The notes beneath the pieces are model-generated. The model made no database searches, was not told where the DNA came from, and saw only the letters and a program-made list of their open reading frames with translations. From Eubacteriales bacterium (GTDB lineage: Bacteria; Bacillota; Clostridia; Oscillospirales; CAG-272), in the NCBI GenBank assembly GCA_045631745.1, contig JAZQVI010000040.1:1-63003 (forward strand): a stretch of DNA of 63,003 bases. The letters run 5' to 3'. Positions 40,207 to 40,711 of the stretch are shown in pieces. The translations under genes were made by a program, and so were the position numbers. How positions within the stretch are numbered: position 1 is the first letter of the stretch; each line of letters starts with the position of its first letter.

Positions 40207-40235
40207 TTGCAATTTCAAAAAATGTGTGCTATAAT
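40207..40235 (+). promoter_or_regulatory. sigma-A type promoter of tRNA-Val
   Basis: TTGCAA, 17-nt spacer, (TGc)TATAAT, 13 nt upstream of the tRNA 5' end. Confidence 0.7.
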
Positions 40236-40248
40236 ATCCCCGTTGCAT

Positions 40249-40325
40249 GGAAGCATAGCTCAGTTGGTTAGAGCGCACGGTTCACATCCGTGAGGTCGAG
40301 AGTTCGAGTCTCCCTGTTTCCACCA
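40249..40325 (+). tRNA. tRNA-Val (anticodon CAC), CCA encoded
   Basis: Cloverleaf by hand. Acceptor GGAAGCA/TGTTTCC, D-arm GCTC-AGTTGGTTA-GAGC, anticodon stem CACGG/CCGTG with loop TTCACAT, T-arm GAGAG-TTCGAGT-CTCCC (one mismatch), then ACCA. Confidence 0.85.
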
Positions 40326-40330
40326 AAAAA

Positions 40331-40360
40331 GATCCCCCCGTATAAACGAGGGGATCTTTT
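40331..40360 (+). terminator. intrinsic terminator 1 (after tRNA-Val)
   Basis: GATCCCC..GGGGATC hairpin flanked by AAAAA and TTTTTT. Confidence 0.75.
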
Positions 40361-40376
40361 TTGCTGAAAAAGCATC

Positions 40377-40501
40377 GGAACGAAGAACTCCGCAAATCTC
40401 GCGCCAAGCGAGATTTTGCCAAAGCGCGCGATAAGACAGAATAGAGGTCAAGCACAGAATCAAACCGCGCGCTTGAGTTCAGAGTCTCCCTGTTTCCACC
40501 A
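40377..40501 (+). ncRNA. tRNA-Val-derived tRNA-like unit A (degenerate, about 50 nt longer than a tRNA); expression unknown
   Basis: The 3' 27 nt, GAGTTCaGAGTCTCCCTGTTTCCACCA, equal the tRNA T-arm/acceptor/CCA with a 1-nt insertion. The 5' end GGAACGAAGAACTCCG resembles GGAAGCATAGCTCAG. The middle holds hairpin AAATCTCGC/GCGAGATTT and stem AGCGCGCG/CGCGCGCT. Confidence 0.5.
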
Positions 40502-40506
40502 AAAAA

Positions 40507-40540
40507 GAACTCCAACATGCTGTGTTGGAGTTCTTTTTTT
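40507..40540 (+). terminator. intrinsic terminator 2 (after unit A)
   Basis: GAACTCCAACA / TGTTGGAGTTC hairpin followed by TTTTTTT. The stem sequence is unrelated to terminator 1. Confidence 0.75.
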
Positions 40541-40552
40541 GCTGAAGAGCTT

Positions 40553-40675
40553 GGAACAAAGAGCTCTGTAAATCTCGCATTGCGAGATTTACCAAAGCGC
40601 GCGACAAAAGATACTGTTGGAAAGCCAAAGAATTAAAAACGCGTGTATGAGTTCAGAGTCTCCCTGTTTCCACCA
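40553..40675 (+). ncRNA. tRNA-Val-derived tRNA-like unit B (degenerate, expanded); expression unknown
   Basis: Same 27-nt 3' end as unit A, 5' GGAACAAAGAGCTCTG, and the same AAATCTCGC/GCGAGATTT hairpin. The second stem is kept as GCGCGCG/CGCGTGT through G-U-compatible changes. Confidence 0.5.
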
Positions 40676-40678
40676 AAA

Positions 40679-40711
40679 GAAGACCCCCAGCACTTTGTGC
40701 CGGGGGTCTTC
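40679..40711. terminator. intrinsic terminator 3 (after unit B; also serves the convergent XRE/TPR gene)
   Basis: GAAGACCCCC..GGGGGTCTTC hairpin followed by TTTACTTTT. The regulator stop codon is at 40719. Confidence 0.7.

Follow-up and report, generated by a model that had tools for sequence, protein, structure and literature searches.

Candidate gene-less, folded modules with a copied T-arm behind tRNA and tmRNA genes of a genus of gut Clostridia

Why does the 3' end of a tRNA gene recur twice behind it, each time after a stretch that does not look like a tRNA and before another terminator? The question is raised by positions 40207-40711 of contig JAZQVI010000040.1 (assembly GCA_045631745.1), from an Eubacteriales bacterium of the Oscillospirales (CAG-272), whose 63,003 nucleotides are called the window here. 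The tRNA-Val(CAC) gene of this locus, which is the sole tRNA gene in the window, is followed by two units, A and B, and a first-pass annotation had offered three explanations for them: relict tandem tRNA pseudogenes, scars of integration at the tRNA attachment site (attB), or a structured RNA that arises when transcription passes the terminator. Units A and B are very probably two paralogous members of an undescribed family of gene-less folded modules, and neither pseudogenes nor plain scars. No description of such a family was found in full-text literature searches.

Copies were searched for with unit A, then with a profile, and then with a covariance model. In the source genome, whose assembly has 1.64 Mb in 95 contigs and is 83% complete, the covariance model finds 15 copies at eight loci. 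All 15 follow closely on a tRNA or tmRNA gene and its terminator, on the strand of that gene, the first unit being within about 60 nt of it, and 8 of the 37 such genes are occupied (Val-CAC, Ser-GCT, Ser-GGA, Lys-TTT, Glu-TTC, His-GTG, a Met-CAT and tmRNA). This pattern of placement is far beyond chance. It is identical in 13 loci of relatives and in 56 stretches of metagenome-assembled genomes (MAGs); across species the first unit begins 53-83 nt past the tRNA or tmRNA gene wherever upstream sequence exists, and at least 14 different genes of these kinds are used.

The seven loci of the source genome that are uncut by a contig end (contigs C28, C30, C38, C4, C40, C68 and C88) hold exactly two units each, in tandem at five of them. 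Relatives have 1, 2, 3 or 4 units per locus, mostly one or two and rarely three or four, and the arrays have a period of about 175 bp. Many units lie within about 100 nt of contig ends (for example G024:C112:10-121, G001:C79:3-109 and G010:C269:4-108), so the family breaks short-read MAG assemblies and the copy numbers are lower bounds. Irregular arrays are also seen. Behind a tRNA-Arg(ACG) gene, three matches to the family pattern stand 92 nt apart (L076:3944-4226), and these are truncated units that lack the P1-P2 part of the fold described below and have no terminators between them. On contig C38, past the second tRNA-His unit, the repeat runs through terminator and leader and about 17 nt into a third unit before it stops (L013:1878-1960).

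The covariance model finds 1-12 copies in 21 of the 24 other species of the genus. Outside the genus, the first survey, which sampled 16 other families of the order, gave a match in one of them, and a broader sample, with 250 other genomes in 139 genera of the order, gave one weak match. The sole other-family match of the first survey (L036, G036:C29) consists of identical units that bracket a 1.7-kb insert with one gene of 440 amino acids behind tRNA-Glu, and this pair looks like a horizontally acquired cassette. An exact degenerate pattern, run over 185,579 species genomes, returned the 56 stretches mentioned above, all of which come from MAGs of uncultured Clostridia, Eubacteriales or Oscillospiraceae that were obtained from the guts of animals and humans, and it also matched 13 short metagenome contigs. 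The same pattern has no match in 2.9 million viral contigs, and BLAST against phage and plasmid collections gave none. Apart from these rare matches, the family is restricted to a single uncultured genus of gut Clostridia.

Aligned copies of the source genome have a core of about 105 nt that forms a three-way junction of helices P1, P2 and P3. P1 pairs GAACYC with GRGTTC, P2 is a hairpin of variable length based on CGCRAAT..ATTYGCC, and P3 is rich in GC and carries a loop of about 33 nt; P2 and P3 are common to units behind unrelated tRNAs. In an alignment of 46 distinct units from many genomes, which was fitted to the model, standard pairs occupy 94.7% of cells, against 10-50% in slid-partner controls, both sides have changed in 13 of 19 pairs, and 0 of 500 shuffles reach the observed values. 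G.U cells outnumber A.C cells by 60 to 10, which indicates that the tRNA-sense strand is the folding strand. The scaffold is maintained by compensatory changes and is not decaying.

All parts of the window locus lie on the forward strand. A near-consensus sigma-70-type promoter at 40207-40235 (TTGCAA-17-TGnTATAAT, 10/12 matches, extended -10) stands where the first-pass annotation had placed a promoter, ahead of an intact tRNA-Val(CAC) gene at 40249-40325, which encodes its CCA and is the one tRNA called there by ARAGORN and Rfam (63.9 bits). Terminator hairpin 1 follows at 40326-40362, with an A-run, a GATCCCC stem and a T-run (-20.3 kcal/mol). Unit A begins with the leader GGAACGAA (40377-40384) and continues with a core at 40385-40480 (100.9 bits with the covariance model), built of P1 (40385-40390/40475-40480), P2 (40394-40402/40408-40416) and P3 (40424-40430/40466-40472, with a loop of about 35 nt). 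Its tail at 40481-40501 consists of an extra A (40481) and a copy of tRNA-Val from nucleotide 57 to CCA, and 27 nt are identical to the tRNA locus, reaching into the A-run. Terminator hairpin 2, with a GAACTCCAACA stem, is at 40502-40540 (-21.4 kcal/mol). Unit B repeats this order with the leader GGAACAAA (40553-40560), a core at 40561-40654 (71 bits) with P1 (40561-40566/40649-40654), P2 (40570-40578/40582-40590) and P3 (40597-40603/40640-40646), and a tail at 40655-40675, again an extra A (40655) and tRNA-Val from nucleotide 57 to CCA, with 23 nt identical to the tRNA locus. Terminator hairpin 3, with a GAAGACCCCC stem, is at 40676-40714 (-29.1 kcal/mol); it is bidirectional and also ends a convergent gene at 40719-41603.

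Much of what had been read directly from these letters holds. The tRNA 3' block recurs at 40475-40501 and 40649-40675 with one A inserted after GTTC, so that both later copies read GAGTTC-A-GAGTCTCCCTGTTTCCACCA and the tRNA counterpart GAGTTCGAGTC...CCA, and the start-to-start spacing is 176 and 174 bp. An A-run, a hairpin and a T-run come after every CCA end, and no two of the three stems are related in sequence; a terminator scan missed all three hairpins, whose stems are lengthened by the A/T runs, and the stems were folded directly instead. The inner 9-bp hairpin and the long-looped GC stem are present in both units, and the two G.U pairs of the GC stem in unit B, which is P3, fit folding of the tRNA-sense strand. 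The fold energy against shuffled sequence gives z = -3.4 for unit A (40377-40501) and -4.6 for unit B (40553-40675). No promoter-like site was found inside either unit, and no Rfam 15 family besides tRNA matches the region, even at E <= 10, in keeping with the earlier remark that no named family has this form. Two structural claims had to be given up. The supposed tRNA-5'-like starts of the units, GAACTC and GAGCTC (40385-40390 and 40561-40566), are the antisense of the T-arm sequence GAGTTC; they form one strand of P1 and are no remnant of a D-arm. The acceptor-like pairing of leader and tail (GGAAC..GTTTCC) is private to this genome, and tRNA-Val units of seven other species have other leaders. 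This stem was also tried in units with full tails and is unconserved there.

The rule that links a unit to its neighbour is general in the family. In P1 the 3' strand equals the T-arm of the neighbouring gene, and the 5' strand varies to match it, which gives GAACTC/GAGTTC, GAACCC/GGGTTC or GGACTG/CAGTTC. Beyond GTTC and one further nucleotide comes a copy of the neighbour tRNA that starts at position 57 and is 7-31 nt long (about 100 units), and some tails run past CCA into the terminator while others end within the acceptor strand. The extra nucleotide is A in 45 units, T in 38, C in 6 and G in 1, and the register without it almost never fits the neighbour tRNA. At the 5' flank, P1 is extended by at least 5 tRNA-specific pairs across the bulged nucleotide in 25 of 90 distinct units, and a further 12 units extend P1 in a shifted register; the chance expectation is about 1%. 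The antisense copy of the T-arm has 6 nt in the window, where P1 of units A and B has 6 bp only, and 11-12 nt in many relatives.

Two of the original explanations can be weighed at this point, since both take the units for inert remnants, either decaying tandem tRNA pseudogenes or att scars of lost integrase-bearing elements. This is very improbable. It would agree with the start of the identity block in the T-loop, the sublocation reportedly used classically by tRNA-targeting integrases (Williams 2002), and with direct repeats of the tRNA end that flank an integrase-less island on contig C68. The pseudogene version fails on the units themselves, which give no match with ARAGORN or with RF00005 in 40377-40675 even at E <= 10 and share their scaffold, with compensatory changes, behind at least 14 genes. 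The scar version stands in part: the block does start in the T-loop, cargo is bracketed, and copy number varies between strains. It falls as a plain account, with no linked integrase at about 75 loci and a covarying fold, which scars would not keep. Taken together, the shared scaffold, the covariation on one strand and the persistence of the family across species whose flanking genes are 65-73% identical exclude both decayed tRNA genes and plain scars. The first-pass annotation had proposed a covariance model of the units and a search of relatives, which returned compensatory changes and no random decay, and it had asked whether relatives carry an integrase-bearing element at this tRNA; at the loci examined, no integrase lies near any unit.

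The arrays change at the DNA level. Among Logan contigs of three DNA runs there is one informative joint at tRNA-Val and nothing clear at the tRNA-Lys array. The joint comes from strain X1, a close relative in one metagenome run, whose contig joins 40418 to 40592 through 13 shared nt; depth is zero over 40456-40563, and strain X1 therefore has a single hybrid unit. Several arrays repeat the terminator and leader together with the unit, which suggests unequal crossing-over, and the three differing terminators of the window suggest separate or old events. Other genes also lie between units, and direct repeats of the tRNA 3' part bound such cargo on two contigs of the source genome. On C68, two units flank a 9.6-kb sugar-use block (ROK regulator and kinase, GH2, GH28, SIS and GDSL), in which no recombinase was found. 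On C4, two units flank 1.9 kb with an XRE-type helix-turn-helix (HTH) gene, and the insert splits the loop of the terminator hairpin.

The chances are about even for the whole statement that the units are gene-less, recombining modules transcribed by terminator read-through. On the tRNA strand, the module comprises, in order, a short leader, the antisense T-arm copy, P2, P3, the sense T-arm copy (GRGTTC), the bulged nucleotide, the tRNA tail and an intrinsic terminator. It would multiply or move by recombination in the block shared with the tRNA gene, from the T-loop to the 3' end, or between modules. Each event would duplicate or import a tRNA tail and a terminator, giving arrays of 1-4 units with a period of about 175 bp, and other DNA would sometimes be trapped between two modules as cargo. 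The tRNA-sense strand would be the folded and selected form, most likely as RNA made from the strong tRNA promoter by reading past the first terminator, and the tRNA-like 3' end would give this RNA a defined end. Read-through is proposed by analogy with the Escherichia coli tRNA-linked repeats (TLRs; PMC8144298). The earlier explanation by a structured read-through RNA would fit the strand-specific fold, the terminator of each unit and the lack of a promoter; it and a self-propagating recombination module are not mutually exclusive, and their combination, evenly poised as it is, is taken as the best explanation. The family with its exclusive placement, the tail rule with one extra nucleotide, the covariation and strand bias, the difference in copy number between strains, the bracketed cargo and the lack of a linked recombinase are observations; we infer transcription, the route of recombination with its enzyme, and any cellular role. 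The mover may be an unknown enzyme or a host enzyme, or homologous recombination may suffice.

A number of results weigh against this combined explanation. About 75 loci were examined with 8 kb of flank, and neither the flanks nor any cargo yielded an integrase; clustering of 1418 flank open reading frames (ORFs) gave no recurrent protein family beside the units beyond tRNA-specific synteny. The source genome has one full tyrosine recombinase, which is Xer-like, and one fragment, and no serine recombinase was found in its assembly. Most unit-rich genomes lack Y1 HUH transposases, IS110-type transposases and reverse transcriptases; PF01548, the IS110-type DEDD transposase domain, is absent from G000, G015, G021, G011 and G024, which have 6-15 units each. 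The joint of strain X1 lies between P2 and P3, outside the T-loop block, and points to ordinary homologous recombination between units. Tail matching could be passive, by gene conversion rather than by the mode of insertion. The flanks are not syntenic among the available species and no pair of empty and filled sites was obtained: the gene downstream of the window array has homologues in 32 of 40 other genomes of the genus searched, never beside tRNA-Val in 11 loci inspected, the unit-free tRNA-Arg(ACG) of the source genome shares only tRNA and promoter with filled loci, and an exact-pattern scan of metagenome contigs for the tRNA-Val promoter of this species gave no match. The three sequencing runs that hold the locus sequence are all DNA metagenomes, and the fitting of the alignment to the model tempers the covariation. 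The history of tRNA partners has a similar weakness. On a tree of the core only, made from 76 columns after tRNA-matching columns were left out and itself weak, the tRNA partner changes 33 times, against 57 in shuffles and a minimum of 13, and some well-supported clades mix up to five partners; scaffold lineages appear, on this weak tree, to have switched tRNA partner many times, which would speak for the combined explanation.

Some of the same data can be read without any mobile module. The units may be host small-RNA (sRNA) genes, whose functional products are co-transcribed with tRNA or tmRNA by read-through and whose working part is the P3 loop, and this is somewhat unlikely. The arrays would then be multicopy sRNA genes like LhrC1-5 or the csRNAs, and the duplications, islands and tRNA-matched tails would be by-products of unequal crossing-over and gene conversion near a recombination-prone tRNA gene. 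The loops carry the conserved motifs GCACCGCAT and CACAGAAT and fall into a few classes that recur behind different tRNAs, loci and genomes, and tandem units with scaffolds 97-99% identical can differ in the loop only. This conservation speaks for sRNA genes, as do the strand-specific fold kept across species with such diverged flanking genes, a terminator in each unit and a promoter in none, clustering by tRNA partner above chance (the 33 changes against 57 shuffled), the census of recombinases and transposases, which found no mobilising enzyme, and the precedent of RrA, RrB and RrF of E. coli. It leaves unaccounted for the T-arm copy and the antisense match to the neighbour in every unit, the constant extra nucleotide, the bracketing of cargo and the switching of partners; complements of the loops in the source genome are no better than chance, and the sequence is present in DNA runs only.

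The contrast between loop and scaffold is strong in the tandem units of L011 (C28), L010 (C88) and L032, whose scaffolds and flanks are 94-99% identical and whose P3 loops are 39-58% identical, and it reflects either an exchange of loops as modules or flanks that were homogenised. P3 loops were also considered as guides, and a short-word BLAST of 12 loops against the source genome gave chance-level matches only, of 13-16 nt.

The fold could also belong to DNA. In a reading without RNA, which is unlikely, the units are folded single-stranded recombination sites like integron attC or the attP of CTX phage. P1 with its extrahelical base would mimic the T-arm duplex, and a recombinase encoded elsewhere, possibly the host Xer-like protein, would exchange strands just past the bulge and so insert or excise cassettes behind the tRNA. 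The enzyme census gives this reading its candidate: in six other genomes with 4-12 units each, the orthologous Xer-like protein is the one tyrosine recombinase that all share, a Xer-like protein is likewise the one common to every genome checked, and other integrases of the relatives checked are near no unit. The strand-specific fold, the conserved bulged nucleotide in the closing helix, the cassette-like arrays with cargo between units and no recombinase within, and the boundary at a constant position (GTTC-N|GA) agree with it as well. Integron-type integrase, attI and Pc promoter were not found, and the integron-integrase models give the Xer-like protein 88 and 53 bits against cut-offs of 265 and 435. 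Tails that share 7 to 31 nt with the tRNA are unlike a single fixed crossover point, the sole observed change of copy number has its joint elsewhere, a 175-bp circle is a poor double-stranded intermediate, and the terminator after each unit stays unexplained.

A bolder reading, which is quite unlikely, sees in the module the nucleic-acid half of an integration device that can be retargeted. The antisense copy (up to 11-12 nt and tRNA-specific) and the sense copy would recognise both strands of the T-loop by base pairing, and the bulged nucleotide would mark the exchange point. The chemistry would be done by a recombinase elsewhere, the Xer-like protein being the only one common to the genomes, and the interchangeable classes of P3 loop would select or mark cargo. 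If true, this would be guide-directed site-specific recombination without a dedicated transposase gene, and it could also explain the E. coli tRNA-linked repeats.

XRE-type HTH genes with long variable C-terminal parts often adjoin the arrays, in the window (40719-41603, reverse strand) and at L009, L011, L032, L034, L046, L049, L087 and L094. With a home-made HTH profile applied to the collected loci, two or three matches of which are sigma factors, 12 of 22 HTH ORFs are at most 500 nt from a unit, compared with 302 of 1418 of all ORFs. The product of the window gene has 294 amino acids with an XRE-type HTH, and the gene is convergent on terminator 3. On the other side, a gene for a DUF6472 protein of 64 amino acids (39907-40101, reverse strand) is divergent and just upstream of the tRNA-Val promoter, and a nitroreductase-family gene (39345-39887) comes after it. 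Further along the window, a lysine riboswitch (Rfam RF00168, 72.7 bits) is at 58280-58451 on the reverse strand.

Trailing repeats that end in the tail of a tRNA have been known in E. coli since 1978, and there is no agreement on the function or origin of most of them. The present family shows the rules of the E. coli repeats in a distant phylum and adds three testable features, namely a three-way junction that covaries on one strand, an antisense T-arm that tracks the neighbour and a constant bulge of one nucleotide. Pairs of modules bracket accessory genes (a sugar-degradation operon, regulators and surface proteins) without an integrase, and the modules may point to a way of acquiring genes, in gut Clostridia, that escapes standard island finders. 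For annotation, the units should not be called tRNA pseudogenes, and they break MAG assemblies.

Among known systems, the bridge and seek RNAs of IS110 and IS1111 resemble the module in that a scaffold carries segments matching both strands of a target, here the antisense and sense T-arm copies. They differ in that IS110-type DEDD transposases are absent from unit-rich genomes, and action of the module in trans is here only a proposal. Cis-mobilizable elements (CIMEs), tandem accretion and the tycheposons of Prochlorococcus share with the family the 3' end of tRNA or tmRNA genes, flanking partial tRNA repeats, tandem arrays and variable cargo. A tyrosine or serine integrase defines CIMEs and tycheposons or stands at their origin, and their att flanks are unstructured; here about 75 loci show no integrase, and the flank itself folds as a conserved module.

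Integron attC sites are comparable as short, structured and strand-specific sites with an extrahelical base, arrays and cargo without its own recombinase, and the closing helices may be compared too, since each pairs an inverse with a direct core (GAAC..GTTC for the module, RYYYAAC..GTTRRRY for attC). The module differs from them as a three-way junction instead of an imperfect hairpin, its cores are T-arm copies and not RYYYAAC/GTTRRRY, its anchor is a tRNA or tmRNA gene instead of attI, IntI was not found, and most arrays are geneless between units.

The closest likeness is with the E. coli tRNA-linked repeats, reportedly described by Egan and Landy (1978) and by Rudd (1999); the group compared here includes RtT RNA (Rfam RF00391) and RrA/RrB/RrF. 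The tyrT repeat of E. coli has a period of 178 bp, against 174-176 bp in the window. The E. coli genome has ten such loci with 1-5 units apiece, 22 units in total; every unit finishes with the final 18-19 nt of the preceding tRNA or rRNA gene, and the units examined owe their transcription to read-through of a terminator (Stenum et al. 2021, PMC8144298). Both groups stand directly behind tRNA genes (behind rRNA genes too in E. coli), with one to a few units per locus at several loci per genome. In both, the 3' end of the unit repeats that of the upstream gene (here 27 nt in unit A and 23 nt in unit B, through CCA), and the units lie between terminators, have no promoter and are of largely unknown function. 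RtT RF00391 is not among the 41 Rfam matches at E <= 10 over 40150-40760. Transcription is shown in E. coli, whereas the present family is known from DNA alone. The copied block here starts in the T-loop, with one extra nucleotide and a paired antisense copy of the T-arm; a covarying three-way junction is common to all loci, cargo is bracketed, and the host range is one genus of Clostridia. The E. coli repeats are the nearest precedent, and the family may be regarded as their structurally distinct counterpart in a distant phylum.

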